Origin: Schmidtea polychroa
Taxonomy: Eukaryota
Assembly: GCA_044892525.1 (NCBI GenBank)
Contig: CM097885.1
Location: forward strand, 34,908,001 to 34,972,000
Reading direction: 5' to 3'
DNA length: 64,000 bases
The notes beneath the pieces were generated by a model, which worked only from the letters and a program-made list of their open reading frames with translations, was not told the origin of the DNA and did not search any database. The first letter of the stretch is position 1. Each line of letters starts with the position of its first letter. Shown here in pieces: positions 1 to 54,400 of this stretch. The position numbers were made by a program, and so were the translations under genes.

Positions 1-394
1 CACATCCACATATATATACGTATACACATACACCCACACATATATGGATATAATTTAAATTAATAATATTGATGTCGTTTTCAGGGGGGGGGGGTGTTAC
101 TAAAAATAGATTTTAGTGATTTTCCGTAATCTTATTGGAAGATAGGGCCATTGAAACTAAATTTAGAGATAGGGGAATCCCAAAATCGATAATTTTGTTT
201 AAAATTTTATTTTTAAGAAATAATAATTACTTTAATAATATAATCAGTTTAGTGGGGTTACTGGGGAAAATAAAATCAATGATATCAATAAAATGTAATA
301 GTAATACTAATGATAGTAGCAGTAATGTTAAAATAACAATAATGATAAACGGCGAATGTACCTTGATATCTTTATGAAATTACCACGGGTATAT

Positions 395-1360: not shown

Positions 1361-1399
1361 AAATATTTACAACTTTTTATAGATTATATTTTTATCGCT

Positions 1400-7311: not shown

Positions 7312-7358
<47 letters not shown>

Positions 7359-7408
7359 GTATTAGTATTGTTACCAGTAACATTATCACTCTTATTATTA
7401 TTATTACT

Positions 7409-7439
<31 letters not shown>

Positions 7440-15887: not shown

Positions 15888-16074
15888 GAACTTCCCCCTT
15901 TAAAACCGGAGGTTAACATTTAAACGGCTTTACATATTTACAGAGATAAGATAAAACTGCAAAAAAAAATATGTTCTTGTGTTTTGTGATGATTTAGGTG
16001 AGTTTATGTTTTGTGTTTTACAACTAGCACTTTATAAAAATTGTACAACAAAATCTTGTGGGTGCATGTGTTGT

Positions 16075-19000
16075 TTATTTGAGGCAATCGCTATAACGCT
16101 TTTTGTATTCTGGTGTGATTGTTGTGTTGTTGTCGAAAATTTTTGTTGAGTTTTTTTCGCTGAATCTGATGTGTTTCTGGTTTGTCTGTATTTCTGTTCG
16201 TTCTTGTGTTTTGTACTTTGGGTGGTTGTTTTGAGGGTTTAGGTTGTGGTGATTGTTAAGAGTTGGTGTTTTGTTTTCGTGATATGGTTTTAATCGGCGT
16301 ATGTTTATTTTGATTTGTTTATTGTCTTTTAAAATTGTGCCAACGTTTTTATACATATTTAACAGTTTGTATGGGGCTTCGTACTTTGTTTCAAATCCGC
16401 TAGTGAAGGGTCTCTTTACTAAAACCATGTCTATTATTAGTTCTGTTTGGTTTTGGGTTTTATTATTATTTTTGTTTTTTAGAATACTTTTTAGTATGGG
16501 TATTTGTGATTCTTTAGCGGTTGTTTTAATCTTGTTTTCGTTTTCGTCCTTTAAGTTTGGTAGGTTGGTATTGTGTCCAAAAACTGATTGGCTAGGGCTT
16601 TTATTGTTTAGGCTTGAAGGGTTGTTTCGTAATCCTATTAGTATTTCTGGTAATTTTTCTAACCAGTTGTTGTTATTATTTGTTTTTGTTCTGATTGCTT
16701 GTTTTAATGATCGGTGTAATCTCTCAACTTTTCCGTTTGATTGTGGATTGTATGCTGTTGTTCTGGTTTTGTTGATGTTATATTTGTTGCAAAGTCCTTT
16801 GAAAATGTCGGATTCAAATTGCCTACCCTGATCGCTGATTATTGTCTTTGGGCAGCCATACCGGGTGAACCAGTTTAATTCTAATTTACTGCATATTTTT
16901 GCTGCTGATATTTCCTTTATGGGAATGGCTTCGAACCAATTTGTTTTTCGGTCTATTATAGTTAATAAGTACTTGTGTTTATTATTTGGAGGTAGAGGGC
17001 CGACTATGTCGATATGTATCGTTTCGAACGGTTCCGAACTTGGGAATTGTACAATTGTTGTTTTGAATTGTTTTGTTGTTATTTTATTCTTTTGATACTG
17101 TGGGCAATTTTTTACGAACGTTTTTACGTCCCTTCTCATGAAAGGTCAAACAACTTTGGTATGCAGAAGTTCGTATGTGGCTTTGTTTCCCGGATGGTAG
17201 ATGTTGTGATATTTTTGGAGGTATTGATCGCGCAGTTCTGCTGGTACTACGATCCTTTTGTTATTGTCATTTGAAGTGTCGTACCATATGCCGTCTATTT
17301 CTTCCAGGTGGAGTGAATTCATCCTTGGAGTTTCGATTGTTGTTTCTTTTTGTTTAGTTTTTAACTTTTCTAACTCTATGATGGGTGTTATGTTAAGTGC
17401 ATTTATGTCAGTTTCTATTCTTGATAATGCATCTGCACTTATGTTAGCTGAACCTGCTATGTATTTTATTTTGCAATTAAATTGTGAAATATAGTTTAAT
17501 TGTCTTATTTGTCTCGGTGAAGGGTTTTTCATGTTCATTGCGTTTATTAAGGGTTTATGGTCGGTATACACTTCGAAATCTTTTCCTTCCAATAGGTATT
17601 GGAAATGTCTGATTGTATCATGTAACGCTAATAACTCCCTGTCAAAAGTAGAGTATCTCATTTGGTGGGTTTTGAGTTTCTTTGAGAAGAAAGCTATTGG
17701 TCTTTTTTCGTTATTTTCTTCTTGGAATATCGTTCCGCCCATTGCTACTCCCGAACAATCTGTGTTGACTATGTATGGTAATTCTTGGTTGGGATAGTTT
17801 AGGATGCTTGCATTTTTCAGATTTTCTTTTGCCTGTTCGAACGCTGTTATTAGTTTTTCGTTCCAATTTATTTTGTTGTTTCTCTTTATTTTGTTCAGTT
17901 CATTGAGAGGGGCTAGCATTTCACTACATCTTGGTATGTATTTGTGATAGAAATTGATCATGCCAAGGAAACGTCTTAGCTCTTTTGTAGTTTTGGGTAG
18001 AGGGTAATTTTTGATCGCTTTGATTTTGTCGTCTAAAGGTCTTGTTCCATTTTCGTTTAACATGTGTCCCAGGAATTTTATTTCTGTTTTCAAAAATTCA
18101 CATTTTTTTATGTTAATTTTTAGCTCATGTTTGCTTAATATATCGAACACATTTTTAATATTTTGTATATGTTCTGTTTTGTTTGCTGATGCTATCAGGA
18201 TGTCGTCAAGGTATACGACTGTGTTCTGTTGATTTCGTAATATTTGCTCCATGAAGCGTTGGAAAGTGGCTGCAGCATTTTTTAATCCGAAAGGCATTTT
18301 GTTATACTCGAACAGTCCTATGGGTGTGATGATTGCTGTTTTCTTTATGTCTTCAGTTCTGACAGGAATTTGATGATAGGCTTTTTCTAAATCTATTTTG
18401 CTGAAAATTTTAGGTTTGTTAAATCTGTTGATGATATCGTTTATTATTGGGATTGGGTATTTGTCTGCTGTTGTGATATTGTTTAATGCTCTGTAGTCTC
18501 CACAGGCTCGCCATTCGCCGTTTGCCTTTTCTTTAAGCATGAGGGCTGATGACCAGTTTGAGTTTGAGTGTTTGACGATTTGGTTTTCTAGTAGTTCGTC
18601 GAATATTTTCTTAGTTATTTCGAGTTTATTTTTGTCTAACTGTCTGACTTTTGCATGGACTGGGTTTCCGTTGCTAATTATTATGTGTTCGGTTATGCAT
18701 TTTGTGTTGTTGTTTGTCTCTAATTTATTAGTTATATTTGCTGCATTTCGTATCAGTTTTGCGATTTCGTTAGGTATGTGCCAGTTTGTTTCTGTTTTAT
18801 TTGTTTTTGCTTCACCTATTTGGGCTGTTATTACTCCGATGTCACAATTGATTTGTTTTTTAGACTGTTTATTTTTGTGGTGTATGTTATTTGAATTGTT
18901 TGGTATGACTTTTCCATTCTTACAATCGACTAGTAGATTGAAGTTTGAAAGGAAATCTGCTCCTAAAATAGCTTGTTTGACTTCAGCTATAGTGAATTGC

Positions 19001-19278
19001 CAATTGTATTGAGTGTTGTTGATGGTGATGTTAATGTTTTGCTTTCCGAACGTTTTAATTGGGCTGCCGTTTGCTGCGCACAAATTTGCGGTTTCGGTTT
19101 TTGTGTTTTTGTATAGGTAATTCGGTAATAATGAAATTATTGAACCTGAATCAACAAGAAAATTTAGGCCATTGCTATGCACCGTGAAAGTTTGGCTGTC
19201 ACCTAATGTCGGTGCTATCATTGGTGACTTTATATGTTTCCCGACTCTTCTTTGTCGAAGGTGCAGGGTTTGTTGCAT
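16075..19278 (-). pseudogene. pol: pol (protease-RT-RNase H-integrase) with one in-frame TGA
   Basis: Motifs FLVDSGS (PR), YLDDILI (RT), TDCSG/DRELLA (RH), HxxxH..CxxY, IHIDIVGPL/SDQG/VERLH (IN). ORFs 17146-19278 and 16075-17139 are in the same frame, separated by TGA where W is expected (VV*PFMRRDV). Confidence 0.93.
19195..19242 (-). promoter_or_regulatory. Programmed -1 ribosomal frameshift signal (gag to pol)
   Basis: Slippery heptamer G GGA AAC at 19236-19242 in the gag frame; a -1 shift enters the pol frame (..GKHIKSPM). About 7 nt downstream is the stem-loop GTCACCAATG...CATTAGGTGAC. Confidence 0.8.
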
Positions 19279-20308
19279 TTGTATGCTTTATTCCCAAATT
19301 TATTGTGGTAGTAACAATAGTTTTGGGGTTGTTCCCTGTTTTGTTTCTGTCGAAGCTGTTGTGGCTGCCAGATCGTGTATTTTGTCTGGGATAATTTTGT
19401 CTGTTTTCGTAATATTGCGTTCTCCTGGATTCTCTTCTTTGTAATTCGGTTATGCCCTTTCTTAGATTTTTGTTTTCAATAATTATTTCGTCGAATTTTG
19501 TTACCAGAGTTGAGAGGAGTTTGTTCGTTTCTGTAGTTTCTGAGCTATTGTGTACAGGTTTGTTTTCGTTGCTCTTAAAATAATTTTTGTTTTGGTAAGT
19601 TCTACATATTGTTGGGTATATTTCGTCGTTGATTTTGTCTGCTATGTTTTCCAGAGTATCGAGGTCTGTACAGTTGCTGGCAGCTAGAATCCGTCGTATT
19701 TCAGGTGGCATTGCGCGCATGAAAAGGTCTTTAATGAACTCTTTTGACCCGGTGCTTGTTATTTTTGGTTGTAGTTATTCGAGTTTTGCCTTTAGGTTTC
19801 GCAGAAATTCAGACGGGTTGTCGTTACCCAATTGGATATCTTTCAAACAGGATTCGAGTAGTTCTCGCCTGTTTACTTTGTTCCGATTTATTAAAGTGTT
19901 GTATAGGTTTTCGAAAGGGTTGTCGTCCTTTGATATTTTCTCTACTCTATCGGCTATCTCGTTCAGGATGTTGCTGGGAAGGGCAGCGATTATGTGAGAA
20001 CAAACTGTTCTTGATGATTTAATGCCTGATAGGCTTAATGTTAATTTGGCGAATTCTAGCCATTTTTGTGGTGTCCCATTTTCGTCTGTGAAAAAATTTG
20101 GGATATTTGCCTTGGGGTTTAGTATTGAGTTTACCGCGGATGAATTTTCGGGGTTGTAATAATAACTACTGCTTTCATGTGTTGTGTGTGTGTTTGCGTT
20201 GTTGGTGCTTGGGTTGTATTGGTTGTTCATGTTTTCCGGTGAGTGAGCATTTTCATAGTTGTTGGGTATCTTTGTATTGTTTGTCGGGTTTTGCTGGTTT
20301 GAAGCCAT
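19230..20308 (-). pseudogene. gag: gag with one in-frame TAA and a 1-bp frameshift before the CYYHNKFGNKAYKCNKPC knuckle
   Basis: ORFs 19775-20308 and 19199-19720 are in one frame across a single TAA. The Cys/His knuckle, followed by ...ESGNI*, lies in another frame from about 19320. Confidence 0.85.
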
Positions 20309-20497
20309 TTATTTGTTTTGTTGCTGTTTTTTTATTGTTTGCTGTGCAAAAAAAAATAGTGGTTTATTTGAAGGATATGGCCTACTGTGTTCGGCCAACA
20401 GTGTCACTAGCCTTTATAGTTCTATAATAACTATTCTGAAAGGTTTCGTGATTGAAATAACAAATGCCGAATGCGTGTTATGTTATTGTTTTTTTAT

Positions 20498-20509
20498 CTT
20501 CTGACACCA
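20498..20509 (-). promoter_or_regulatory. Primer-binding site, tRNA-Leu-like
   Basis: TGGTGTCAGAAG 2 nt downstream of the 5' LTR, complementary to the 3' end (CTTCTGACACCA) of metazoan tRNA-Leu. Confidence 0.75.
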
Positions 20510-20511
20510 AT

Positions 20512-21187
20512 TGTTAAGTAATAATGTTATTTTTATTGTTATTTAATGCAATAAGGAAAATTGATGAGCCCGAAAGAGTCACCGATAAAAAAAATGTGGC
20601 GGGACAATCGGGGTGCAGGCTGTGTTTTGTTTTGACGCGAAAAATACAATAAAAAAGAAAATCAAATTAATATACAACAATTATTATAACACTTAAAAAT
20701 TTTTATTAACTAAAAACCAATATAAGGTTACTTCTGACAATATAGCTTTTCTTCAGTGATTAATCTTTGAGTAAGCTTTTTAAGTTCGAATAATAATGGG
20801 ATATGAAAAAGTATGTGTATGGTTCGAGATTATACGAGTATTTGATCTAATCCTTTGAGTAGTCGTTGGGAGAGCTTCCGAATTATAACTGTTGGATCTT
20901 GAAATTTCCCAATTTACTTAATTCCTTGTTTAATAGCAGAAAAGATTTCACGGGAAATACCTGTTTCTTGTTTTGATAATTTTTAATTTGTCGTTATAGA
21001 TTTTTTTTTATTATTTCAATTTTTTCCTATAGTGATAATTTACTATGGTAAATTATCACTATATAGTTTGTTTTTTTACGAACATAAAATAAAAACCTTC
21101 GCCACGTACGACGTGAAGAATTGTAATTTACATTTATAACATACGGTTAACAAAACCAAGAAAAATAAATAATTACAATACATTACA
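20512..21187 (-). repeat. 5' LTR (676 bp)
   Basis: Direct repeat of 15211-15887. Confidence 0.95.
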
Positions 21188-22329
21188 GTCTGGATCGGTG
21201 AGCATTGCAGTTTCAATCTTCTCGATTTTTGAAGTAATCCGATTGCTGAGGTAGGTCTTGAATGGCCTGTACAACTGTGGCAAAAGCCTTCTGTAGGCTT
21301 TGTAGTATTTTTCCAGGCATTCAGATTGATCAAAAAATCTGAAGGTTGATTCATTTCCAATTCGAAGCACTAAAAAAAATCGAATTTTATATTGCACGCC
21401 ATTTTTATAGGTACCATTTAAAAGTCTGAATTTGGCGTCATTCTGAGAACCCGATCTATTGGTGAACAATTTTAGGTAGGTGCTATTAATTCACTTACCT
21501 TTTTATAACTGAATAATTTTGAATAATGATGAACTCCAAATTTAAAATATAATTTTTGATTTTTTTACGCTTCTCTTCTATGTTTTCCCTTGGGTGTAAA
21601 CCGCCTGTCTTTACGGCTTGTTCTTTGTATCTTTCTTTCTGGGGTTTCTTTTTCTATAATTTTCTGATACTTTTCTAAAATTATTTTTCCTAAATTTCCT
21701 CAAAAAATTTGTTTGCAGTTCGAATTAAATTCATTCGTTTCAGTTTCTCTTCATTTTTCATCTCATTTTGCTATTTTACCAGCCTTATTCTGGCTTAGTT
21801 ACTATTTTTATCATTTTTACAATATTTCACCTGTTTGATTTTATTTTATTTAAATCGATACTTTCTAATTTTTCTTTTCTTGATTTTTTTTTATTTAATT
21901 AATTAATTTCCCATTTTTTTATTTTCTATTTATATTTTTCATTTTATTTCGTTTCTGTTTTTATTTTATTATATTAAAATTTATTTCTTTTCCTTGCACG
22001 TTTTTGTTAGAACTTTTCACCTATTTTCGCGGTACTATTTTGTCTAATTTAAGCAAATTCATGGGTATCCTTAGTTTTTGGCCAAATGTGCGTTTCACCT
22101 GAATATAGACAAATAAGAAATGCAATTTAAAGATCTATTCTCCTGAGAAATCTGATTATTGAAAAACATTTTCATTCAGTAATTTATCACAACATTCCTT
22201 GATCAACATCCCGATAGTTGACACATCCTAGTGTACTGTGTTGACATCTTCATTTGACATTTTGTCAACTGCTGTGTTACAATGATATGACAACTCATTA
22301 CTTTCTCTACATCTGATTGTGGCATATAT

Positions 22330-23803: not shown

Positions 23804-25850
23804 GGTTACAAACTAATCCAGATAACATCAAAAAGTGGAAGAGTACCCAGTACTAAAAGATGCCGATGAGGTCAGACAATTTTTAGGTTTGGCTAGCTAT
23901 TACAGGAAATTTATAAAAGATTTCTCTCATATCGCTTAACCATTGAATACGTTACTAAAGAAAAACAATAAATTTATTTGGGGACAAATGCAACAAAGCG
24001 CTTTCAATACATTAAAAGAAAAATTAGTGACAACTCCTATATTACGATGTCCAGATTTTACGAAACAATTTATCTTGATGACGGATGCAAGCAATGTTGC
24101 ATTGGGCGCGGTGTTGAGCCAAAAATTTGAAGGTGAAAAGGACCACTTAATAGCATACGCAAGCAGATCACTGAGATCTCATGAGAAAAACTACTTAACT
24201 ATTGAAAATGAAACGTTAGTGTTAGTGTATAGAATTGCTACTTTTAGACAATACTTACTGGACCGAAAATTTACTGTTTATACGGATCATAATGCATTAC
24301 AGTGGTTAATGAAACACAGAGATTCAGCCAGTAAGTTAATACGATGGTCGATTGCCCTCCAAGAATACGATTTTGAGATTAAATATCGGACAGGTAAAGC
24401 TAACGCGAATGCAGATGCAATGTCAAGAATCCCAGAAAATGATAGTGAAGGAACACGAGAAAAATTGGAAGGCACTATATTTGCTGCAATCAAAACTGTT
24501 AATGATATGTCTGAACTACAAAATGATCAGGAAAACGATAGTGAATTAAAACAATTTATGGAACAAGCGGTCAAAATAAGAAAGGAACAAGATTGGAAAC
24601 GACTCACAGATGCAAACAGCAAATATGTAGTTCATAATGGAATACTTAAAATTTGGAAAAATATCGAACCATTAATTATTATCCCAGCCAAGCACAGAGA
24701 CGCATTACTGATGCAGTATCATGATGGAGCTTTGGGAGGTCATTTGTCAACGCGCAAGACGCTATCAAGATTAAAACTGAAATACTTTTGGCCAACAATG
24801 GAACAAGACGTGAAAAATTGGTGTAACAGTTGTAAAGTATGCATCACTCGCAGAAATACTGGTAAAACGATTAAAGTACCATTAAAACCGATGCCAGTAC
24901 CTGCAGCACCGATGGAGATGACGGCAATGAATATTCTGGGACCATTACCGGAAACAACAAAAGGAAACAAATACATTGTTGTTTTTTGTGACCATTTTAC
25001 TAAATGACCGGAAGCATACGCTATTCCAAACCAAAAAGCTGACACGATTGCTAGAATATTTGTGGAAAACATAATATTTTGCTATGGTACTCCAAAGAAA
25101 TTGCTAACTGATCAAGGGAGGAACTTTCAAAGCGAAATGTTCAAATCAATCATATACCTATTTGGGATTTGGAAAGTAATTAATTGGGATTTGGAAATAC
25201 AAACTGATGGATTAGTGGAACGATATAATGGGACACTGATAAAAATGATCTCATCATATGTGAATCGAAAACAGAAAGATTGGGACGACTTCATTAAGCC
25301 GTGCTATTTGCCTACAGAAATGCAGTAAATCAAAGTACAGGTGAGACCCCTTTTTATTTGATGTATTTAAGGAAAAATAATATGCCAATTGATCTCAAAT
25401 TCCAACCACCAATTTCACAATATATGGAGATACCCGATTATAAAGCATTGATGCAAGAAAGAATGCAATCAGTATGGACTAAAGCCGGTTTGACAATAAA
25501 GCACAACCAAGAGAAATATAAAGAAGCCTACAATAAAAAAGTACATGCGCATGGCATAAAGATCGGAGATCTAGTATATCTTAACAGACCGGAACCTCTC
25601 AAAGGTCTATCGCCTAAATTACAAAGACCATTTAAAGGACCATACAAAGTGTGCGACACCACCGAAACCAATTTGAAATTGTTACCATTCAGGAGTAAAA
25701 AGGCTAACCAAATGATTGTGCATGCAAATCGATGTAAACTAGTGCCAGAGGAAGATGAATCTAGATACCCCTTAAGATCCAAGCGGAATAAAGTAACAGG
25801 TCAAACAAAAGTGAAACAGAAATTCACGAAAAATCCAACACAAGTCAGCT
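23804..25850 (+). pseudogene. pol: Ty3/gypsy pol, C-terminal part (RT connection, RNase H, integrase, GPY/F), disrupted
   Basis: GLQTNPD..VRQFLGLASYYRKF; TDASNVALGAVL (RH); H..GH..CxxC zinc finger; LLTDQGRNF; GLVERYN; FKGPYKV. Several stops and frameshifts. Confidence 0.93.
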
Positions 25851-26997
25851 ACATCAATAAGATATTATATGTAACAACAATGCTGATGTTAATAACAATT
25901 ACGAGCGGCAAAAGGATTGACTTGCCATATGCAGTAAACAAAATCCAGGGAATGGAGAAAATACATATGTATTCCACTCTAACAAATATTGTGTGGAGCT
26001 GTAAATGCGAGATCGCAAACCAAATAGAAATTATTAATTTACTAGACAATACGACACCAGTGGTAGAACTGAATTATGATAAAGATGTATTTGCGGCACG
26101 AAAGTTAAAGCGAAATTTCAAATACCAATGGCTGTTGAGACAGAACATGTCAAAGTGGTACACGCAAATTCCGATAGAAGTGCACACAAAAAAGATGCAA
26201 AACCTGATTGAAATAGAACCAGGGATAAATGTAATCAATATATATTGGAAGCCAGTGGACTTGGGGAAAGTGCGAATCACATTTCAAGGGTTAAGTGTCG
26301 ACACCCTTAACTCGCGAAAATCATTTGTCCAATATGAGAAATTGAGAATGAATCAAAATTATTCAATTAACGCAAACTACTACGAGAACATATGCCTCGA
26401 AAATGGAACGGTAATGAGAAACCAATGGTCACGGTTTAAGAGTGAGACCCAGTCTATCTATCTCAGAGACGAGCCAAATCGTATAACCCTGAGTGTTGGA
26501 AATGGACCGGTAACAATGTATAGAAAATCAGGAAATGATGAAAGAGTTGTTACAAAGAACACTACAAACAAAAGAACTACAAACAAAGAACCTTGACTAT
26601 ATTAGATGCCTATAATCATTTTTTTACACTTTACACTTCTGATTTAGAGACGGTATGGGAAATAACAGTTAAATATCAGCGATGGATAACCGAACCAGGC
26701 AGATGGCAAACCGTTTTCGGGGAAGTCAAGGCGATCAATGAATCGAAACGAACGTCATATACAACCACATCACCTTTCCAATTACCAACCCAAAGGACGA
26801 CAAAACCTAACACAAATAAACTAATGATGACAAATTCGGATTTGACAGTCAACTATTGTGAATATCTCATTTACATTTTAATAACAGGTTTTTTCATCTT
26901 GTCAGTAACATTCATAACCATCACTATCTTGATATGTGTGAAAGAGAGACAACTAACTATCCTTCAACCAACATCATATTCATATTACGAAACATGA
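25850..26997 (+). pseudogene. Type-I membrane (env-position) protein fused in frame to the integrase C-terminus, with a single 1-bp frameshift
   Basis: Signal-like ILYVTTMLMLITITSG, an ectodomain with N-x-S/T sites, a Thr-rich stalk and a TM segment YLIYILITGFFILSVTFITITILICV. The frames are joined by restoring one A in the tandem ACTACAAACAAA(A)GA at about 26585. Confidence 0.65.
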
Positions 26998-27966: not shown

Positions 27967-28268
27967 TTATTCGTCATCAGAGTCCAGCAAAATAGGACTT
28001 TGGATACCGCAGTCCCATTCCTTGCGTACGTTGCAAGGTGGGCATCTCTCGAGCCTGCAGGACGTATCAACGCAGGCGAAGGTGCGCTTTAATCCCTTTC
28101 GACGCGGTGGTAAAGGGATCCTGAAAAATGAAGATAAAAACCTGTTAGCAAATCAGCCAAGTAACCATTCCACAACATCCAGATATTCAAACTTAGGTGC
28201 CGTGACAACCTAAATTAGTAATAGTTGAAAAAAAAATGAAATAAAGACTATGTAAAAGTCCGTACCAT
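27967..28268 (-). CDS. Predicted spliced 66-aa Cys-rich micro-protein (exons 28266-28268, 28166-28209, 27967-28120)
   Basis: GCC ATG followed by a 56-bp GT..AG intron, then a 45-bp intron with a GCTAAC branch point; phases are consistent. Product MVVTAPKFEYLDVVEWIPLPPRRKGLKRTFACVDTSCRLERCPPCNVRKEWDCGIQSPILLDSDDE*. Confidence 0.6.
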
Positions 28269-28769
28269 GGCGCCCTCGATAAATAGTTAGGGCAGAGAAA
28301 TAGTTGATCCTTAAGAATTACGTAATAAATACTAGTGAAAATACAAATAAATGAGTATAAGTACGGCTAAAATTGTTAGGAAAAATGCAAGCGCAATCAG
28401 TAATAGATATAGGGTAGGTGTAATTAAAGGTTTGCTTTTATTGTGTAAATAAATGTATACAAATGGAAAATTGAAAATATATACCCCAAAACATGAGTGT
28501 ATTATAAGCAGTTACATAAACAAAATAATAAACTAAAGTTAAAAATAAATAATTTAGTTTAATAAGCAACACGAGCACTTGCAATCACCGGGGTTTGGCT
28601 ACCCTGGATAGCGATTGCAAATGTTCGGTTGCTATGAGGGAATGCAATACGAATAACTAATAATTGAGGACAGCATGGTAAAAATCAAAAAAATCACTTA
28701 AGTCCATACTATTGAAATATAATGTTACTGAAAGACAAAAAAAAATAAGACAAAAATAAAATATAAAAA

Positions 28770-29120
28770 TCTTACTTGAAGATTGAAAAGGCAAAACTAA
28801 TGAGAAGCGGTAATAAAGAAACTTATATAGGGCGCTTATCAGTAATATAATCTAAACTGGGGACATTAGAAAAACCCAGGGAAATTAATTATAAAGCTTA
28901 TCAGTACGGGGTACGTTAATAAACCGCAGGGTAATTAAATATTCCATCTAGATATCCGGAATATTAATGATCATCTCAACTTTATAAGACGGAAAGATAA
29001 AAGTGGCATATGGACTTCTGAAATACCGACAAAAAAAAAGATTGTTGATACCGCTAGCGCTTATCAAGTTGAGAAAATAAAGAGATATAGGAGCCCTGGG
29101 AATCGGTCGGTATGATAAGG
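28770..29120 (-). promoter_or_regulatory. Putative antisense promoter: TATA box, first donor site and GATA-motif cluster
   Basis: TATATAAG at 28822-28829 (minus), donor CAA|GTAAGA at about 28775, and at least five WGATAA motifs between 28835 and 29120. Confidence 0.5.
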
Positions 29121-29289
29121 GACGTAATCAATAAATTAGAATTAGAAAAGTATGAGAGTAGGTAGATAGTGGCCTACGGGAACAATTACCCCCCCGGGGG
29201 GGGGGGGGTTGTTCCCGAATTTTTATTACGCAATTGTTCCCAAATCATTTTTTTGCTTTCAGGGAATTTTAGTCCAAATTTTTTTTTAT

Positions 29290-30000
29290 CACACTATAGT
29301 GAGGGGGTCTCGATGGTCCTGGGATTTTCAATACAAAAAATTTTTTTCAATACAAAAATCCGACTACCACTCAAAAAGCACAGAATTTTCAGACTATAGT
29401 GCGGGGATCTCGATGGTCCTGGGATTTTCAATACAAAAATCCGACTACCACTAAAAAAGCATAGATTTTTTTAGGTCAATTCAGGTGGGTCTCCTTGGTC
29501 CTGGGATTTTCAATACAAAAAAAATTTTTCAATACAAAAAGCTGGTCTACACTAAAAAAGCATGGTAATTTAAGGTCTCAGGATATTTTCAATACAAATA
29601 GGTGGTCTACACTAAAAAAGCCAAGGATTTTTCGAATTAAATTAAGGTGGGTCTCCTTGGTCCTGAGAAAAAGGTGGTCTACACTAAAAAACGTGGTAAA
29701 TTTTTGAATTACAGTAAATTATGGGTCTAAAAAATTAAATTACAGTAAATAATGGTCCAAATTTTTAAATTAAAGTAAATTCTGGTTCTAAAAATCAAAT
29801 TACAGTAAATTATGGCTCAAATTTTTGAATTACAGTAAATTATGGCCAAAATTTTTGAATTACAATAAATTATGGTCCAAAAATTTAAATTAAAGTAAAT
29901 TATGGTTCTAAAAATTGAATTAAAGTAAATTATGGTCCAAATTTTTAAATTAAAGTAAATAATGGTTCTTAAAAGTTAAATAAAAGTAAATTATGGGTAA
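29290..30000 (+). repeat. Subterminal tandem arrays (GGTCCTGGGATTTTCAATACAAAAA units, then about 30-bp AAATTACAGTAAATTATGG units); mirrored at about 38400-39130
   Basis: Directly visible. The right arm has one extra 30-bp unit. A related 30-bp array occurs at about 47150-47350. Confidence 0.9.
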
Positions 30001-30116
30001 AAAATTTGATTCTAATTTACAAAACATTCTTCTTTTAAATGATAACTACTGACTTATTATTGCAATGTAAAAATCGTATTCAATAAATACTTATTGTTGA
30101 TCAGTTTTATTATATA

Positions 30117-33100
30117 TACTCTGAGTTTATCCGACAGGATGTTTTGACCCCCTAAGGGTAAAGGTCGTAAGGGTACTGGTCGTAAGGGTACTGGTCGTAA
30201 GGGTATTAGTCGTAAGGGTACTGGTCGTAAAGGTACTAGTCGTAGGGGTATTGATCACTCTCAATCCCCACCTACTCATTAATTAGCTACCATGTACTAA
30301 CCACTAGGTTTCAAACAACTAAATAATAAACACTTACAACCATGTACTAACAACCACCATCAAAACCCATCGAGAAATTAACAAATATCAACCTACAACT
30401 AGATACTTACAACCAGATACCCGCTACCAAGTACTTACAACAAGATACCAAGTACCAACAATCAACTAACCACACATAAAAATAATAGCAATTAAATACA
30501 AAATATTCTTCATCACATACAATATCTTCTTATCAAAATCTAAAAAGTCAATCAGATACCAACTACCAAGTACCAAGTACTAACAACCAACTACCTAGAA
30601 CCAACAACTATGTACTAACAAATTGATCTTTAAAAGAAAAATACTCATCACTTGAAAAATTAGATGGAAAATTAATTGAACTCAAGGCATCAATAACTAG
30701 GTAAAAATTGATTAAATTATTGTAAAAATTTAAAATATTCGAAATAATATCATAAAAATTTAATTAATGGACAGGAAAAAATTCTAATCATCAAGTAAAT
30801 AAAAAAAATATTGATCATTCAAGTTGAATCAACTAAGATAATAAATTAATAAGATAAGATCTAGTAGATAATTGATTTAGATTAAATAAATTAATTGAAA
30901 TAAAATTAATTTTAAGTATTTTTTTAAAAGTAATACATGTACTCAAATTGATTGACTGATTTCTCAATATATTCAAAAAATCAGTATAAATTCATTACAA
31001 TTATCAAAGTCAGCAATCTACAATAAAAATAATTATCATTAAATTCCAAAAGAGACTAGATAACTAATGATAACATCTAACAAACCAGTAAATTCATTCA
31101 AATGACAATAATTGGTATATCCAAGTGAATTCTCCAATAAAATCATCTAAAAAGCATCAAATTTCCCTGAAATATCTATATCTTTTAAGATTAGTATCTT
31201 ATCGATAAATACTTGTTAAAGATCATATATTCACCTCAAACTAACAAGATTCCTTAAAATCCCCTTAAATGACTATATTTCTATCCTTAATTCATATTAT
31301 TACAAATATCATCTAAAAAGCATCAAATTTCATTGAAATAACACTATCTTTAAAGATTGATATTTTAATGATAAGTACCCTTAAAAGACTATATATTCAC
31401 CTCAAACTAACAAGATTCCTTAAAATCTCTTAAATGACTATATTTCTACCCTTAATCCATATTATTACAAATATTTCACTAAAATCATCTAAAAAGCATC
31501 AAATTTCCCTGAAATATCTCTATCTTTAAAGATTAGTATTTTATCGATAAATATCCTTAAAAGGTTATATATTTACCTCAGACTAATAAGATTGCTTAAA
31601 ATCCCCTTTAAATGACTTTAATTCCTATTATCACGAATATTATAAAACATGTAAAATAATTTGGTCATTAACCCTAAATAATTGATAAAATCTAATGATA
31701 AAACCGGTTATAATTAACTTTTTGTTAATCACTGTACTCGAAATTTAAAATAAATATAACTGACTAGGTCCCATTGAAAGATTAAATTTATCCATTCAAT
31801 AAAATATATTTCTTCAAATGATCATTTTACCAATATTCAACCGATTTAATTACTAATTAAAATCAAGATTCCTTCCAATAAAGATCAATTTTATTTAGTC
31901 AATGTTTTAAGTCCATATTTCTCAACTTTTGTCGTTGTCCGTCTAAATAAAGATAAAAATAATTTAAAGTTGATATCAATCCCAATTATCTGTAAAGTTT
32001 TCATTGTCAAAACCAAGTAAATCGATCATTATCCCTACTTAATAAAACATAAGTCTAAATTAATATACAATGAATTAATCACAACCTAATAAAACGATAT
32101 AATTATTATTGATACATAACTGACTAATTGACATTTCCCTTAAAACAATGATATTTTACCAACATCACCATTAAAAAAATCATATATTCCCATCTTAACC
32201 CATGTCTCATTAAATTTAACCGACTATATTCCCATCTTAACCCATCCTTCATTAAATTCAATCGACTATATCTCCCTTACAATGATATATTCCCACCTTA
32301 TCTGATCTCTCATTAAATCTAACCGACTATATCCCCTCAAAAGATCATATATTCCCATCTTAACCCATCCCTCATTAAATTTAACCAACAATATCCCATC
32401 TTAACCGATCTCTCACCAAATATTTCTACCCCTTTAAACATCTAACCAATTATATTCTACCCACTTGAATCCTCCTTTAATTCAATTCAGTCTTAAAATC
32501 TTTAAAGAACTTCAAAAATATGACTTAATTGTTATAGACACCAAATATTCTTCCATTGAAATAATTTAGTAGCTATGTAGTAAGAGTTCACTAAAAGATC
32601 AAAAATCAATATTTTCTACAAATATTTACCATCAAATACTGGAGATGATATATATTGATTGATCATAATTCTTCATCGATTCAGCCAATCATTTTCAAGC
32701 AATAACAGCAAACTAAATTTCTTTATATCCTACAATAATTATCACGTAAATTTAAAGTCCCTGATAAAGTTAACTGGTTTCTTAGCTTATGTTTTTAAAG
32801 TTCATCAATGAGTAAATATTCTTGGAAAATTATTGAAAAAAATTATCTAGTCAAATATATTACAAAGTTATCATCAAAAATTTATTCTATCACTTAATTA
32901 TTAACCTAATTGTCAATGAAATTAATTTTTATTTAAAAACTATTCAATAAAATACCACTAATTATCAAGAAATTAACTAAATTTATCAATTAAATTTATC
33001 ACCATTAAAACTTTTAATCAGTCAACATGAAATTCTTAGAAAATTATTCAATATCCTCATCAAAATTTATCCTATCACTTGATTATTGTACAAACTTAAC

Positions 33101-33535
33101 CTCATTAAAAATAAATTTTTATTTAAAATTAAAAACCAATCAATAAAAATACATTCAATTATCAAGAAATTAATTAAATTTACCTTAGAATTAGCATTAA
33201 ATTACAGATATTCACAAAAAATTACGGAAATTCATGAAAATAATGGACATTCACAAAATTCATAAAAATTCACAAAAATGATAGAAATTCACAAGAATGA
33301 TAAAAATCCACAAAAAATTCATAAAAATTCACAAAAATGTTAGAAATTTACTTGAATAAAACCATCAACTCTAAAAATTATCAATACCTTAAACACATTT
33401 GCCTAAATAATCATTCAAATAAAAGCATTAAATACCTTTACGACTAATACCCTTGCGACATGTTGAATGTGAGTAGTACCCTTGTGAGCAATACCCATAG
33501 GGGGACAGAATATTTTGTCGGATAAACTCAGAGTA
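30117..33535. mobile_element. Nested TIR-bounded segment inside the left arm (mirror copy at 35763-38280)
   Basis: TACTCTGAGTTTATCCGACA...TGTCGGATAAACTCAGAGTA inverted ends in a TA context. Contains 15-bp (GGTCGTAAGGGTACT), about 180-bp and about 45-bp internal tandem repeats. Confidence 0.65.
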
Positions 33536-34237
33536 TATATTAATTAACTCATTCAAATTTTTCATTGAATTAGTCAAATTATCATAAATTTCGATAAAAA
33601 TTCTAAAGGGGTAAGCAATGAAAAGACAATTATTCTTTAAACTTTGATAAAATTAACAATGAAGGTGGTAAGAATCTTCATTAAAGTGAGGAAATTACTC
33701 GATGATAAATTCAAATGGGTGAAAATAATTGGTAGAATAATCCATTAATGGAGGTAGATAATGAGAAGTAGTATAGATAAGATGAAGGTTGATAAGAATG
33801 GAAGTATATTAATTGAATTTATTTAAAATTATTTCATAAAATTCATAAATTTAATAAAAAAAAACAAATATTTGTGGGGATGTTTTAAGTGAATAATTAA
33901 TAAAAATCGGCGGAATATAATTGATTAAATATCGGGGGGTGGGGGTTATAAGTGAATAATTAATGGAAAATCGGGGGGATAATAGTGATAATAATTAGTG
34001 GAAAATAGAGAATCGGAGGAATATAAGTGAGGAGGATATATAATTTAAACTAGTTTATTACATAACAGGCCGTAACTATTTTATTACATAACAAGCTGTG
34101 AATGGTATTTGATTAAGAAATATGGAATAGGTCATTTTTTTTAAATTTTTGACTAAAATAAATTCTAAAATAATTGCAAGTTATTACTAAAATGTTTTAA
34201 TTTACATTATGTATTTCAAAAACAATTATCATAAGAG

Positions 34238-34336
<99 letters not shown>

Positions 34337-37300
34337 CCCTTTTCATTCAAAATAAGTTAAATATTCAAATATAAGTCTTAGAAAATACTATCAAAATTAA
34401 ATTTTAAAAATATAAATTTTATAAGTTTTTCAAATTCTCGAATAATGTAAATAATAATTTAATTTTTACCGGGTATAGACTTAAACTTATTGACGGAATT
34501 ATGTAATAGAAATAAAAAGTTACTTAGGTTATTTTTTTTCAAAATTATGACTAAGTCCTTTAATATTGTAATAATAGCTTTTTATTAATAAATTTATTAT
34601 TTTACGTTAAATATTTCAAAAACAATTATCATATTATTAATTATATTACCCTTTTTAATCAAAATAAGATAACTATTCAAATAGATGATTTTTATAAATT
34701 ACAATAAAAATTAAATATTTTTACACTAAATTTAAAAATATAAATTTTATAAGTAAATGTAAATAAGAAATTAGTGTATTATCAGTTATAGACTTTTAAA
34801 ACTTATTGATTAGATATTAAAAGTTACTCTTTTTTTTTCAAAAGGTCTTTTAATATTGTATTCTATTTATTATTAAATTTACTATTTTACACTAAAATAT
34901 TTAGAAAACAATCATCATAATATTAAATATGAAACTTCAATCAAAATAAGCTAATACTCGAATATATATCTTATAAAATACAATCAAAATTAAATACTTC
35001 ACAAATTTTAAGTAAAGTTTTTTAAATTCTCAAATAAATGTTAACAAGATATTAATTTAATAATCATTATATACTTTTTAAACTTATTATTGGAATAAAA
35101 CAATAGAATGATATTGAAAATATATACAATTTTAAAATATAATTAAAATTAAATTACATACTTTAAAAATTTAGTAAAATGTTGGTAAAATACCATTCAC
35201 AGCTTGTTATGTAATAAAATAGTTACGGCCTGTTATGTAATAAACTAGTTTAAATTATATATCCTCCTCACTTATATTCCTCCGATTCTCTATTTTCCAC
35301 TAATTATTATCACTATTATCCCCCCGATTTTCCATTAATTATTCACTTATAACCCCCACCCCCCGATATTTAATCAATTATATTCCGCCGATTTTTATTA
35401 ATTATTCACTTAAAACATCCCCACAAATATTTGTTTTTTTTTATTAAATTTATGAATTTTATGAAATAATTTTAAATAAACTCAATTAATATACTTCCAT
35501 TCTTATCAACCTTCATCTTATCTATACTACATCTCATTATCTACCTCCATTAATGGATTATTCTACCAATTATTTTCACCCATTTGAATTTATCATCGAG
35601 TAATTTCCTCACTTTAATGAAGATTCTTACCACCTTCATTGTTAATTTTATCAAAGTTTAAAGAATAATTGTCTTTTCATTGCTTACCCCTTTAGAATTT
35701 TTATCGAAATTTATGATAATTTGACTAATTCAATGAAAAATTTGAATGAGTTAATTAATATATACTCTGAGTTTATCCGACAAAATATTCTGTCCCCCTA
35801 TGGGTATTGCTCACAAGGGTACTACTCACATTCAACATGTCGCAAGGGTATTAGTCGTAAAGGTATTTAATGCTTTTATTTGAATAATTATTTAGGCAAA
35901 TGTGTTTAAGGTATTGATAATTTTTAGAGTTGATGGTTTTATTCAAGTAAATTTCTAACATTTTTGTGAATTTTTATGAATTTTTTGTGGATTTTTATCA
36001 TTCTTGTGAATTTCTATCATTTTTGTGAATTTTTAAGAATTTTGTGAATGTCCATTATTTTCATGAATTTCCGTAATTTTTTGTGAATATCTGTAATTTA
36101 ATGCTAATTCTAAGGTAAATTTAATTAATTTCTTGATAAAAATTTATTTTTAATGAGGTTAAGTTTGTACAATAATCAAGTGATAGGATAAATTTTGATG
36201 AGGATATTTTTTTAATGGTGATGTTGGTAAAATATCATTGTTTTAAGGGAAATGTCAATTAGTCAGTTATGTATCAATAATAATTATATCGTTTTATTAG
36301 GTTGTGATTAATTCATTGTATATTAATTTAGACTTATGTTTTATTAAGTAGGGATAATGATCGATTTACTTGGTTTTGACAATGAAAACTTTACAGATAA
36401 TTGGGATTGATATCAACTTTAAATTATTTTTATCTTTATTTAGACGGACAACGACAAAAGTTGAGAAATATGGACTTAAAACATTGACTAAATAAAATTG
36501 ATCTTTATTGGAAGGAATCTTGATTTTAATTAGTAATTAAATCGGTTGAATATTGGTAAAATGATCATTTGAAGAAATATATTTTATTGAATGGATAAAT
36601 TTAATCTTTCAATGGGACCTAGTCAGTTATATTTATTTTAAATTTCGAGTACAGTGATTAACAAAAAGTTAATTATAACCGGTTTTATCATTAGATTTTA
36701 TCAATTATTTAGGGTTAATGACCAAATTATTTTACATGTTTTATAATATTCGTGATAATAGGAATTAAAGTCATTTAAAGGGGATTTTAAGCAATCTTAT
36801 TAGTCTGAGGTAAATATATAACCTTTTAAGGATATTTATCGATAAAATACTAATCTTTAAAGATAGAGATATTTCAGGGAAATTTGATGCTTTTTAGATG
36901 ATTTTAGTGAAATATTTGTAATAATATGGATTAAGGGTAGAAATATAGTCATTTAAGAGATTTTAAGGAATCTAGTTAGTTTGAGGTGAATATATAGTCT
37001 TTTAAGGGTACTTATCATTAAAATATCAATCTTTAAAGATAGTGTTATTTCAATGAAATTTGATGCTTTTTAGATGATTTTAGTGAAATATTTGTAATAA
37101 TATGAATTAAGGATAGAAATATAGTCATTTAAGGGGATTTTAAGGAATCTTGTTAGTTTGAGGTAAATATATGATCTTTAACAAGTATTTATCGATAAGA
37201 TACTAATCTTAAAAGATATAGATATTTCAGGGAAATTTGATGCTTTTTAGATGATTTTATTGGAGAATTCACTTGGATATACCAATTATTGTCATTTGAA

Positions 37301-39869
37301 TGAATTTACTGGTTTGTTAGATGTTATCATTAGTTATCTAGTCTCTTTTGGAATTTAATGATAATTATTTTTATTGTAGATTGCTGACTTTGATAATTGT
37401 AATGAATTTATACTGATTTTTTGAATATATTGAGAAATCAGTCAATCAATTTGAGTACATGTATTACTTTTAAAAAAATACTTAAAATTAATTTTATTTC
37501 AATTAATTTATTTAATCTAAATCAATTATCTACTAGATCTTATCTTATTAATTTATTATCTTAGTTGATTCAACTTGAATGATCAATATTTTTTTTATTT
37601 ACTTGATGATTAGAATTTTTTCCTGTCCATTAATTAAATTTTTATGATATTATTTCGAATATTTTAAATTTTTACAATAATTTAATCAATTTTTACCTAG
37701 TTATTGATGCCTTGAGTTCAATTAATTTTCCATCTAATTTTTCAAGTGATGAGTATTTTTCTTTTAAAGATCAATTTGTTAGTACATAGTTGTTGGTTCT
37801 AGGTAGTTGGTTGTTAGTACTTGGTACTTGGTAGTTGGTATCTGATTGACTTTTTAGATTTTGATAAGAAGATATTGTATGTGATGAAGAATATTTTGTA
37901 TTTAATTGCTATTATTTTTATGTGTGGTTAGTTGATTGTTGGTACTTGGTATCTTGTTGTAAGTACTTGGTAGCGGGTATCTGGTTGTAAGTATCTAGTT
38001 GTAGGTTGATATTTGTTAATTTCTCGATGGGTTTTGATGGTGGTTGTTAGTACATGGTTGTAAGTGTTTAGTATTTAGTTGTTTGAAACCTAGTGGTTAG
38101 TACATGGTAGCTAATTAATGAGTAGGTGGGGATTGAGAGTGATCAATACCCCTACGACTAGTACCTTTACGACCAGTACCCTTACGACTAATACCCTTAC
38201 GACCAGTACCCTTACGGCCAGTACCCTTACGACCTGTACCCTTAGGGGGTCAAAACATCCTGTCGGATAAACTCAGAGTATATATAATAAAACTGATCAA
38301 CAATAAGTATTTATTGAATGCGATTTTTACATTGCAATAATAAGTCAGTAGTTATCATTTAAAAGAAGAATGTTTTGTAAATTAGAATCAAATTTTTTAC
38401 CCATAATTTACTTTTATTTAACTTTTAAGAACCATTATTTACTTTAATTTAAAAATTTGGACCATAATTTACTTTAATTCAATTTTTAGAACCATAATTT
38501 ACTTTAATTTAAATTTTTGGACCATAATTTACTGTAATTCAAAAATTTTGGCCATAATTTACTGTAATTCAAAAATTTGAGCCATAATTTACTGTAATTT
38601 AATTTTTAGAACCATAATTTACTTTAATTTAAAAATTTGGACCATTATTTACTGTAATTTAATTTTTTAGACCCATAATTTACTGTAATTCAAAAATTTG
38701 AGCCATAATTTACTGTAATTCAAAAATTTACCACGTTTTTTAGTGTAGACCACCTTTTCTCAGGACCAAGGAGACCCACCTTAATTTAATTCGAAAAATC
38801 CTTGGCTTTTTTAGTGTAGACCACCTATTTGTATTGAAAATATCCTGAGACCTTAAATTACCATGCTTTTTTAGTGTAGACCAGCTTTTTGTATTGAAAA
38901 ATTTTTTTTGTATTGAAAATCCCAGGACCAAGGAGACCCACCTGAATTGACCTAAAAAAATCCATGCTTTTTTAGTGGTAGTCGGATTTTTGTATTGAAA
39001 ATCCCAGGACCATCGAGACCCCCGCACTATAGTCTGAAAATTCTATGCTTTTTTAGTGGTAGTCGGATTTTTGTATTGAAAAAAATTTTTTGTATTGAAA
39101 ATCCCAGGACCATCGAGACCCCCTCACTATAGTGTGATAAAAAAAAATTTGGACTAAAATTCCCTGAAAGCAAAAAAAATGAGTTGGGAACAATTGCGTA
39201 ATAAAAATTCGGGAACAAACCCCCCCCCCGGGGGGGGTAATTGTTCCCGTAGGCCACTATCTACCTACTTATGAGTATTTTTGACATGCTGATAACAATT
39301 AAAAGGTATCGGTTAAGTTCAAACAAATTTCAATAGTTAACAGAATCGCAAACGAGAACCACAATGACTAAATAAATAAATTATTAAATACGTTGGGACC
39401 AGGGTGAAGGAATAACATATGACGGCAAATAATAATAAAATAGTTACACTGTCGATAAGTAATAAAATCAATGACCGGATTGAAATGGTGACCAAAATTA
39501 TTATTGTGAGAATACAAATGATAAAAATCAAAAATAAGAATTTTAAGTAAATTATTATTACAATAAAAATTATAACAATCAATAAGGCAATCAGCAAACA
39601 AAACCGCTACTGGTTTAGCAATGATCGAATCGAAATGGTAACTGAAAAAATTATTAGTATGATAATATAAATTATGACAATAATAAACTTCACGGTATAC
39701 ACTGTGTCAATTAACAAAATTCGATGTAATACACATTTACTAAATTATTCAGTAATTAATTAAAATCCAAAAATGAAAAAAAAATGATTTTGTTGTTGTT
39801 ACTGTTATTATTTTAATTAGTTGAGTAAATAAATAAATAAATAATTTTATCTTTAGTAAATAAGACTAA

Positions 39870-51400: not shown

Positions 51401-54400
51401 AAACCGTCCAAACTGTGGTTGCTGTCTTAATAAAAACAAAACAAACGCCAAAGCGATGCTTGGTTTGATGACAATCGGGGAATTTATAATGCTCGAACGT
51501 ATAAATTTTACTAATTTTTCGTCCTGGGCCCTTGTGCCGTGCACAACCTGCACAACCTATTGCTACGCCACTGGTGTTAGTTATTATGCAATATACATCA
51601 CCATTTAAGAGTGATCAGTCTATGTTAATGTAAATAAATCTTTATATGGAACCAATTGTTGTAACTGACGACCACGCCGAAAAAGTTCACACAATGACGA
51701 CTCGAGAAGAAGGGTAAAAGTTTGGAAGAGACGCACTACCGAAACGTGCGCAAGAACTCTTGGATATGGAAATTAGAAGATACGACGGTAGATGTACCAA
51801 GGAAGCTGAAAATGGATACAGGTAATTGATGATTGGATCGCTAGGAATGATTTGAAGAGGACAGAAGCATTCGATTTTCTCCTTTGCGATGTAGCGGCTA
51901 CGCTGTGGAAAAATTTCAAAACAGAAAAAACAACAGATAAAGCAGCTAAAGAATGGTTTTCCGAAACATTTACAATTAAATTGACTATTATGGACCAGAA
52001 TAAAGAACTTGCTGCAATTAGACAAGAGGAAAATGAGAGATATGCCACCTTCGAATTCAGGGTATTAAAATTAGTGAGTGAAGTTATTAATTCAGGAATG
52101 AGGGTAGAGGAGATTGCCAATGAAATTATAACTGGACGCGCCAGAGACAGAAGATTAAAGGATGCTCTAACAATGAAACCAACGATGACAGCAGAAGAAC
52201 GAAATCAACTGGCCAAAATTTACGAAAAAGTGGAATCAAAAAAAAAGACGGAAGAAATTATGGTAATAAAGAAGAGTAGTTACGCGGAAGCAACAAGAAG
52301 GAATTCAGAAACGTTTGCAAGAGAAACAAATGGAAGTAACACCAATGTATTAAGAAGCCAAGGAAATTACAGAAAAGAGAATTTACCAGATAATTCGTAT
52401 AACAGAAATAACGAAATGAATCACACAGTCGAACGGAATGTGCAGAGTAGGACACCAACGGTTTCGCTTAAACACATCACCAAGAGATTCTACAATTGAT
52501 CTCGAGACCTACCTGATCCAAGAAACGGCGAATTACAGCCAGGCCAATGTTTTTGCTGTTGAGAATATGGGCATAGAAGATATGAATGTCCACTAAAAAA
52601 TAAATGTTTGATATGTGGTAAGGGAGGGCATAATTTCCGTGATTGTTATTTATTAAGAAAGAACAACAGAACTATGAGAACAAGAAAATGATAGTTTGTG
52701 TGCATGACGAAGAAAACGGAAGAAATTACTCGATGAAGGATCAATTAATGATTATGCAATTCATGATGTGGAAACTGAAAAAAACACGAGGAACTCTATT
52801 TCATACATTTCGTCAATGGGGTTGTAAAGGAAGAAATTCGGAATGACAGAACAGAAGGAATTAGGTATGTGACATCAGGTGGAAGAGAATGGAGCAAGAT
52901 AATGATAAATGATGTTGAGATTGAGATGTTGTGGGATTCTGGAACTTCAATTACAGTGATGAATGAGGAAACATGGAATAAAATTGGCAGTCCACGGTTA
53001 AGCAGCAGTGAAATCAAAATATGTGGAGTTTATCCAGGAACTCAAAAACGACAGGGACGTACAGAAGCAAATATTTATTGGCACAATAAGATTAGGACTA
53101 TCAAAATAATTGTTATTAAAAATATATTTCCAGGTTTTATTGGGGGATAGATACTTTGAAAGCATTTGGAGTGCAGTTGATGGAAATTAACAATATCGAA
53201 TCCGAGACAAAGATTAGCAATTATACTGATGACGAGAGAAGACAAAAAGCAAAAAAGGAATTGGGAAGAAATGAATTACCAACAATTAACAAATTATTAG
53301 ATGAATTCGGGTCAATATTTATGGCAGCCAGATTTGATTTAGGATTCACAAGAATCATGAAGCACGAAATTAATACATCTGGGAATCCAACAATGCAATT
53401 TCCAAGACGACAACCGATGAATCTAGAACATAAAATTGACGATATGATAAAAGAGTTAACAAAAGCTGGGTTTAGAAGACACTGTAAGAGTACATTGAGC
53501 TCCCCATTGGTTGTAGTAGGAAAGAAAGACGGCTCAATAAGAATGTGCGTAGATTATCGAGAGTTGAACATGATGACGGAAAGAGACTCTTTCCCTATGC
53601 CCAACATATCCCGATTGCTCGATAACCTATCAGGATCTAAATTTCTTTCTTCTTTAGATCTTGGACAAGCATACTATCAGGTCGCATTAGCAGAAGAAGC
53701 ACAAGAAAAAACGGCTTTTAGTTCCAAAGAAGGTCTATTTTGTTTCAATCGACTTCCATTTGGATTATCAACGGCTCCAGCAACGTTTCAGCGATTAATG
53801 CACACGATGTTAGAATGTATATTGTTTAATGGAGCAATTGTTTATTTAGACGATATTCTGGTATATGGCAAGGACCAGTCTGAACATAATGAGTGATTGC
53901 GAGAAGTTTTTAGAAGAATAAAAAAAACAGGACTAAGAATAAATCCGGAGAAGTGCGAAATTTACAAAATTAAATTAAAATTCCTTGGTCAGTGAAGATG
54001 GAATACAGACAAATTCAGAGAAGATCAAGTCAATTACAGAAGCGACGAAACCACAGTGTACTAAACAACTTCGATCAATTCTGGGTTTGGCAAATTACTA
54101 TAGACGATTTGTCAAAGATTATGCTAAAATAGCAGCACCCCTACATGCAGCAGCGTCAAGTTGTGATAAAACAATCGAATGGTCAGAAAATTGTGAAAAC
54201 AGTTTTACACAACTTAAAGAAGAATTAACACAAGGTCCTATTCTTGATTTTTCTCGTATAGATCGTAAATTTATTTTGGATAATGATGCCAGTTTCGAAG
54301 CTATTGGAGCAATGTTGAGTCAAATAAAAGAAGACGGTTCAGAAATAGTTATCGCATACGGTTCAAGAAATCTGACGGCCCATGAAAAGGGATACTGGGT

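Follow-up and report, generated by a model that had tools for sequence, protein, structure and literature searches.

The window analyzed in this study is a stretch of 64,000 nt from Schmidtea polychroa (GenBank assembly GCA_044892525.1, contig CM097885.1, positions 34,908,001 to 34,972,000 of the forward strand), and a gene-less palindromic element of 10,113 bp is located at 29157-39269 of this window. The element is probably a fold-back satellite of a Polinton residing in the same genome, mobilized in trans by this helper, and it is a shortened member of a family of ~17-kb palindromes. The ends shared with the helper, the target-site duplications, the gene set of the helper, the size and structure of the family, the identity of the arms within a copy, the mosaic copies with intact duplications and the fold-backs of the helper itself were all established by observation.

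The palindrome and its insertion site

The element starts with AGTAGG and ends with CCTACT, and both ends are directly abutted by the hexamer TATGAG (29151-29156 and 39270-39275, plus strand), a 6-bp match with a chance probability of ~6e-4 at the local base composition. A left arm of 4,954 bp (29157-34110, plus strand) is followed by an unpaired spacer of 1,077 bp (34111-35187), which contains (AT)47 at 34241-34334 and is homologous to the spacer of most family members, and by a right arm of 4,082 bp (35188-39269, minus strand), which is an inverted copy of the left arm. The ends, the duplication, the arms, a spacer of about 1.1 kb and the lack of an open reading frame had been described in the initial annotation of the window, and all of them were borne out. 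The frames were at chance level: the longest one free of stops has 100 aa, and 100 shuffles gave a mean of 86.5 and a maximum of 142. Genes for a polymerase, an integrase, a capsid protein, an ATPase and a protease, all of which are present in the helper, were absent from the element; a tblastn search with the helper proteins gave no match in it (best E 0.22), and neither did Rfam (0 matches). When the two arms were aligned with each other, 4,020 matches, 20 mismatches (99.5% identity) and 7 indels were found. Segments of 872 nt (32178-33049, plus strand) and 40 nt (33119-33158, plus strand) were present in the left arm only, and segments of 30 and 11 nt in the right arm only; in other family members the 872-nt segment is carried by both arms.

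As had been proposed, the ends are those of a Polinton, the first 39 nt being identical to those of a gene-bearing helper copy (copy N). The terminal module common to the element and the gene-bearing Polinton (29157-30006, plus strand, and ~38390-39269 in the right arm) consists of the end motif, a C/G tract, subterminal repeats and a 30-bp array (29698-29996). The match to the helper, however, extends over only ~850 bp per end. The remaining ~4 kb per arm (30007-34110, plus strand, in the left arm) is a family-specific, repeat-rich filler with arrays of 15, 7, 176, 42/62 and 19 bp, and it lacks a polymerase remnant. Hence the claim that the element is one end of a Polinton copied back on itself was not supported for the present helper. 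A single copy-back of the end of the present helper, followed by integration, would agree with the matching ends and with the copy-back products of the helper that do exist in the genome, but it is very unlikely as an explanation of this element, given that the ~4 kb per arm had no counterpart in the interiors of seven helper copies except a weak match of 69 nt (E 2e-4), and that the same ~4 kb matches hundreds of gene-less relatives. Contrary to a single copy-back origin, the window copy is a deletion form of the ~17-kb palindrome family, with ~3 kb lost per arm relative to full-length members. The deletion junction (29992-30020, plus strand; mirror site 38377-38405) occurred once per strand in the whole genome, both times inside the element, and no sister copy with this deletion was found in the genome-wide junction search.

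The insertion splits a dispersed repeat of the host (28001-29150), which resumes at 39276-39741 and beyond. Eleven paralogues of the left flank were read, and in 10 of them the right flank was also matched, contiguously. The printed junctions of these empty-site paralogues show a single TATGAA-type site; therefore TATGAG was duplicated by the insertion, and the window element is a true insertion. An assembly or library fold-back artefact might be suspected since the sole contig across the left junction includes just 25 nt of the element, with no read-level bridge. This suspicion is barely credible in view of the distinct flanks with their direct duplication, the arm-specific indels and substitutions, the unique spacer, the contiguous empty-site paralogues and the dozens of similar elements that each have a duplication of their own.

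A gene-bearing Polinton that shares these ends

The exact 33-nt end was found at 163 + 179 positions genome-wide, a degenerate 29-mer of it at 372 + 390 and a 17-mer at 1,108 + 1,111, with 0 occurrences of the control in each case. All 40 end pairs found among the first 100 listed exact-end matches were examined, and they were sorted into 27 gene-less pairs, 10 with the helper gene set and 3 fold-backs of the helper. Nine of the gene-bearing pairs are colinear and measure 16,586-18,124 bp, while the tenth has additional terminal fold-back segments. The autonomous element with the same termini, for which a search had been suggested, was thus found: it is a Polinton of 16.6-18.1 kb with genes for a polymerase, an integrase, an ATPase, a protease and a capsid protein.

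The products of helper copy N, which serves as a coordinate reference only, include an A32-like ATPase, an integrase with rve and chromo domains, an adenovirus protein-X-like peptide, a TBP-like protein and a RING protein. The polymerase (1,432 aa) was left unnamed by scans against Pfam, PHROGs and PDB sequences, as were the capsid and two 340-aa proteins; it has family-B motifs, and DNA_pol_B_2 is present on 19-45% of the members of its atlas neighbours. The 407-aa capsid protein, modelled with a pLDDT (predicted local distance difference test) of 92.6, matches the double jelly-roll capsids of iridovirus, PBCV-1 and mavirus (best E 4e-16), and a protease homologue is encoded after the capsid gene. 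Three other frames of copy N are putatively labelled PZ and pVII. The TBP-like protein (L052, 2243-2719) is helper-encoded, and the RING-finger protein (L053, 273-1355) was observed in some helper copies only. The integrase frame (L052, 3991-5136, and other helper copies) is broken at one shared point in all family copies aligned across it; the interruption may be an intron, a recoding site or a shared lesion. Four tandem ATPase matches with a 4-kb period were seen at G000:C1 213.93-213.95 Mb. At the right end of locus L045 (G000:C1 5.71 Mb) the end motif is separated from the duplicated hexamer by an extra ACT, which could reflect a slide-back start of protein-primed synthesis.

A second Polinton family (L125-L128, L135-L136), with different ends and a capsid ~80% identical, was found through a sequence pattern that has no match in any helper copy. 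Its integrase frame is broken by a frame change in 3/3 copies. Further Polinton families near 65% identity were seen in protease loci.

Whole-element palindromes as a class, which had been predicted, were confirmed, both as the gene-less family and as direct fold-backs of the helper. The first helper fold-back runs 10.5 kb inward from the polymerase end and 7.5 kb back, measures 18,081 bp and carries the polymerase in both arms. The second has a hairpin core of 18.2 kb plus 4.4 kb, and the third a core of 16.4 kb behind a direct duplication of 10.3 kb. Exact matches to the ATPase numbered 89, and two of three further inverted pairs among them were read: one is a 16,510-bp hairpin of the structural half of the helper (99.9% identity, perfect duplication), and the other a 15.4-kb mosaic with a piece of the filler of the gene-less family. 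Both left-end and right-end fold-back classes occur among the helper-derived copies, and perfect duplications flank direct fold-backs such as those of 18,081 and 16,510 bp.

Moreover, a 24-mer of the polymerase gave 390 + 408 genome matches, mostly as inverted pairs. In 10/10 of the polymerase palindromes that were read, the gene was found in both arms and other helper genes in none, and 9/10, of 13.3-16.3 kb, had both ends and perfect duplications. The end variant of these palindromes occurred 588 + 577 times, with 33 pairs of a median of 13.6 kb among the first 100 listed; by end count, this polymerase-only family (L149-L168, G000:C1 2.66-62.7 Mb) comprises ~580 elements. In 9/10 palindromes the centre is occupied by a mini-element of ~1 kb whose ends are those of a different Polinton family; this suggests nucleation of the fold-back by nested inverted repeats. 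No convincing match to such a nested Polinton-type end was obtained at the centre of the window element. The tenth polymerase palindrome (G000:C1 14.26 Mb) is a near-perfect hairpin, and the region upstream of its polymerase matches a module of the window element (32602-33266, plus strand) over 665 nt with 74% identity in the same orientation.

The gene-less family, its arms and its mosaics

Gene-less relatives of the window element make up 25 of the 40 pairs; the other two gene-less pairs are a 36.6-kb nest of family elements and a 1.4-kb form consisting of ends only. The family has a median length of 16,945 bp, and its full-length members match the helper over ~2 kb per end. The expectation that copies carry 6-bp duplications of their own was upheld, 21/25 being perfect. 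The turn-around point, which had been expected to vary from copy to copy, was instead inherited across most of the family, and a common two-arm layout was found in 22/25 members. One-arm short forms of 5.8-8.3 kb were also observed. These forms, together with the inverted flanks of two copies (l and Q), would be in line with a short non-autonomous Polinton that was inserted and then turned into a palindrome at its site, through a local fold-back inversion of chromosomal DNA. We regard such an origin as highly improbable, as the site has an intact direct duplication, paralogues of the flanks are unbroken, and one layout and centre are common to 22/25 copies at unrelated sites.

A conserved 22-mer of the interior (30115-30136, plus strand; further copies at 33516-33537, minus, 35761-35782, plus, and 38261-38282, minus) occurred genome-wide in 3,165 + 3,132 = 6,297 exact copies and was absent from the tested helper copies. 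The sites that were read belong to older end variants of the family or to palindromes without genes that have two other types of Polinton end; the latter measure 13.7, 13.9 and 16.7 kb, with one larger rearranged copy, and share the inner module at ~70%. The inverted 22-mer pair within each arm was considered as an independent miniature inverted-repeat transposable element and rejected: 8/9 sites read outside the end list lay in Polinton-type elements, and no solo copy was found. The ninth site, together with its duplicate, is a 5.3-kb palindrome without recognized ends. These two loci (L119 and L129) are identical palindromes of 5,288 bp that lie 0.28 Mb from each other, have identical flanks and lack recognized ends and a duplication; a truncated element was likely copied by segmental duplication. 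The 22-mer heads a module of ~90 bp (30108-30200, 33450-33545), which starts with a TATA-like run and is conserved in gene-less palindromes of three end types as well as next to genes in other Polinton copies, though absent from the tested helpers; it might be a promoter or a binding site, or the end of a nested repeat.

As for abundance, 89 exact ATPase 24-mers stand against 2,219 and 1,165 end motifs. By end count the family comprises ~1,100 elements, few of which were read.

Within copies, the median identity of the two arms was 100% at three interior markers, compared with 94-95% between arms of different copies; at these markers the arms of the window element were 99.5-100% identical to each other and 95.5-98.6% identical to those of the closest other copy. 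A mosaic structure was found in six copies (H, K, S, d, e and f), in which the outer arms were 92-93% alike and the left arm matched an arm of a different copy at 99-100%, and perfect target-site duplications were kept in 6/6. Divergent arms were found at the outer marker in 6/24, at the middle marker in 2/20 and at the inner marker in 0/22 cases, and this fall from the outside inward fits a crossover in one arm.

The elements might alternatively be non-autonomous foldback transposons similar to Galileo (FB of Drosophila is another foldback transposon), with Polinton ends that are cut and pasted by an integrase, no free replicating stage, and arms that were grown and kept alike through conversion and recombination within the chromosome. 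The long arms of the window element do consist of tandem arrays, and chromosomal exchange is evident in copies T and M and in l and Q. Galileo copies are described as forming chimeras and as taking up internal sequence into their inverted repeats, which are thereby extended (PMC3573991). The flanks of the Galileo chimeras are nevertheless mismatched according to the same source, whereas the six mosaics here have perfect duplications, so that the mosaics were more likely formed before insertion. Moreover, kilobase arms that are ~100% alike stand against 94-95% within the family, the young helper hairpins (99.9% identity, perfect duplications) arose and were inserted as hairpins, and cut-and-paste transposition gives no reason for a length of ~17 kb. 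Overall, a foldback transposon of this kind is unlikely, and the arms were likely recopied and recombined before insertion.

Proposed cycle, length and relation to known systems

For the fold-back satellite that we favour, the founder of the family would be an old fold-back of the polymerase end, from which the polymerase gene was later lost to repeat expansion. A displaced single strand would fold into a giant hairpin, and one arm would be recopied from the other, which would explain why the private deletion of the window element is present in both arms. Molecules of different subfamilies would recombine prior to insertion, with the proteins supplied in trans. The window element would be a deletion form of later origin; after a single insertion, or in the course of it, 872 and 40 nt would have been lost from its right arm. 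Copying by the Polinton polymerase via an extrachromosomal fold-back intermediate is likely, and so is insertion by a Polinton integrase; from the ends shared with the helper and the absence of genes, we infer that helper proteins mobilize the family in trans. A cycle of excision, annealing of terminal repeats, protein-primed replication by the polymerase and reintegration has been proposed for Polintons (bioRxiv 10.64898/2026.07.28.741278).

Several points weigh against this interpretation. Every mechanistic step is deduced from integrated copies, and the origin from the polymerase end would depend on one match of 665 nt and one weak match of 69 nt, while the filler yielded no polymerase remnant in tblastn or in nhmmer searches with four polymerase genes (0 hits). 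Since the integrase frame of the helper is interrupted, the integrase may come from the helper or from another element. A perfect duplication is missing in 4/25 gene-less members. Copies T and M have a common right flank, and the flanks of l and Q are inverted, so chromosomal exchange takes place too; in principle, a deletion could also be copied from arm to arm by conversion in the chromosome.

The lengths raise the question of whether the family is packaged in the capsid of the helper or selected for capsid size, a proposal that we put forward tentatively and consider somewhat doubtful. The gene-less members fall inside the length range of the helper in 17/25 cases and within 10% of the helper median in 19/25, and several independent helper fold-backs, two of them with unequal legs, are near helper length. 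Intact vertebrate Mavericks are ~17 kb with ~10% variation, which was interpreted as a capsid constraint (PMC8097293), and gutless adenovirus vectors require filler DNA for stability (PMC7226970). On the other hand, the segment lengths showed no compensation (permutation p 0.53 for 22 elements, and 0.27 for 21 without the window copy), the window copy has 58% of the helper length, the polymerase palindromes centre on 13.6 kb (~78% of it), and two helper fold-backs are of unit length only when their extra segments are set aside. The length of the family may simply be inherited.

When compared with known systems, the element resembles Polintons/Mavericks in its AG/AGT-type end motif, its 6-bp duplication (the criterion being 5-8 bp) and the terminal module common to the gene-bearing element, and the family median of 16.9 kb resembles the ~17 kb of intact vertebrate Mavericks (PMC8097293). 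Its ends, AGTAGG...CCTACT, are not the exact (AGT)2 of that report. The family is gene-less, and its inverted repeats of 4-8 kb span nearly the whole element, in contrast to repeats of 100-1,500 bp; likewise, the 10.1 kb and the 4-5-kb arms of the window element differ from elements of 13-25 kb (PMC10748475). The defective copies treated in the accessible text of PMC10748475 and PMC8097293 are decayed gene-bearing fossils. As an autonomous Polinton the window element fails; it passes as a non-autonomous derivative because it shares its ends with a gene-bearing element, has no coding capacity and has many dispersed copies with duplications of their own. Non-autonomous Polintons, known from Repbase and from the work of Kapitonov and Jurka in 2006, are reportedly gene-less and rely on an autonomous element that has the same ends, being shorter deletion forms with ordinary terminal repeats.

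Snap-back and copy-back defective viral genomes, such as the snapback genomes of adeno-associated virus (PMC8235507), similarly duplicate one genome end as an inverted copy. The elements here differ in being integrated with duplications and heritable, and in the non-parental interior of the family. A parental interior, as in copy-back genomes, was found in other elements of the genome but not in the window element, where a remote link is provided by the 665-nt module. Gutless adenovirus vectors (PMC7226970) likewise retain terminal cis-elements only and carry non-coding filler toward helper length, with proteins provided in trans, as would be the case here; the vectors are engineered, non-palindromic by design and non-integrating, and size selection of the present family is conjectural. 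Galileo (PMC3573991) shares long, internally repetitive inverted arms, a variable centre and chimeric copies, but it belongs to the P-element superfamily and has 7-bp duplications, arms of up to ~1.3 kb and chimeras with unmatched flanks. No description of unit-length palindromic Polinton satellites was found in literature searches aimed at them, although subscription papers, Repbase or supplements may hold one. The available portions of PMC8532177 and PMC6431247 contain nothing on palindromes, and the adintovirus and polintovirus literature that was checked, in its accessible parts, concerns short terminal palindromes or mosaics.

Other elements were also observed in the window. At 15211-21188, direct repeats of 678 bp (99.85% identical) surround minus-strand gag/pol-like frames, and by its structure this ~6-kb segment is a very young long terminal repeat retrotransposon. 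A second foldback-shaped element at 8-7671 consists of nested inverted repeats (8-244/7433-7671, 542-1121/6429-7023 and 2638-3603/3759-4703, 89-94% identity) with 117-bp arrays, and its printed ends are not Polinton-like. Broken retrotransposon pol-like frames were located at 12457-13420, 23940-26596 and 51810-56366.

The replication of Polintons and their movement in virions have so far been argued mostly from gene content. Integrated palindromes in hundreds, young hairpins of the helper, mosaic copies whose duplications are intact, and lengths near that of the helper lead to sequence-level predictions for both questions. The family could even represent naturally 'gutless' defective genomes of a Polinton virus of animals, fold-back molecules that kept only their ends, were filled up with repeats to capsid size, were replicated, recombined and packaged by the helper, and were then endogenized; we judge this idea possible, with the balance tipped slightly against it. 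If it is true, defective genomes would outnumber the helper by a factor of ~10 or more, defective interfering particles would have left a fossil record in the genome, and the family would be indirect proof that animal Polintons spread via virions and pass through a single-stranded fold-back intermediate. Mining based on a polymerase plus an integrase, as in the available text of PMC8097293, would miss gene-less palindromes. The gene-less family may fill a percent or more of the genome, and hairpin-forming insertions of kilobase size are relevant to genome stability, double-stranded RNA and assembly quality.

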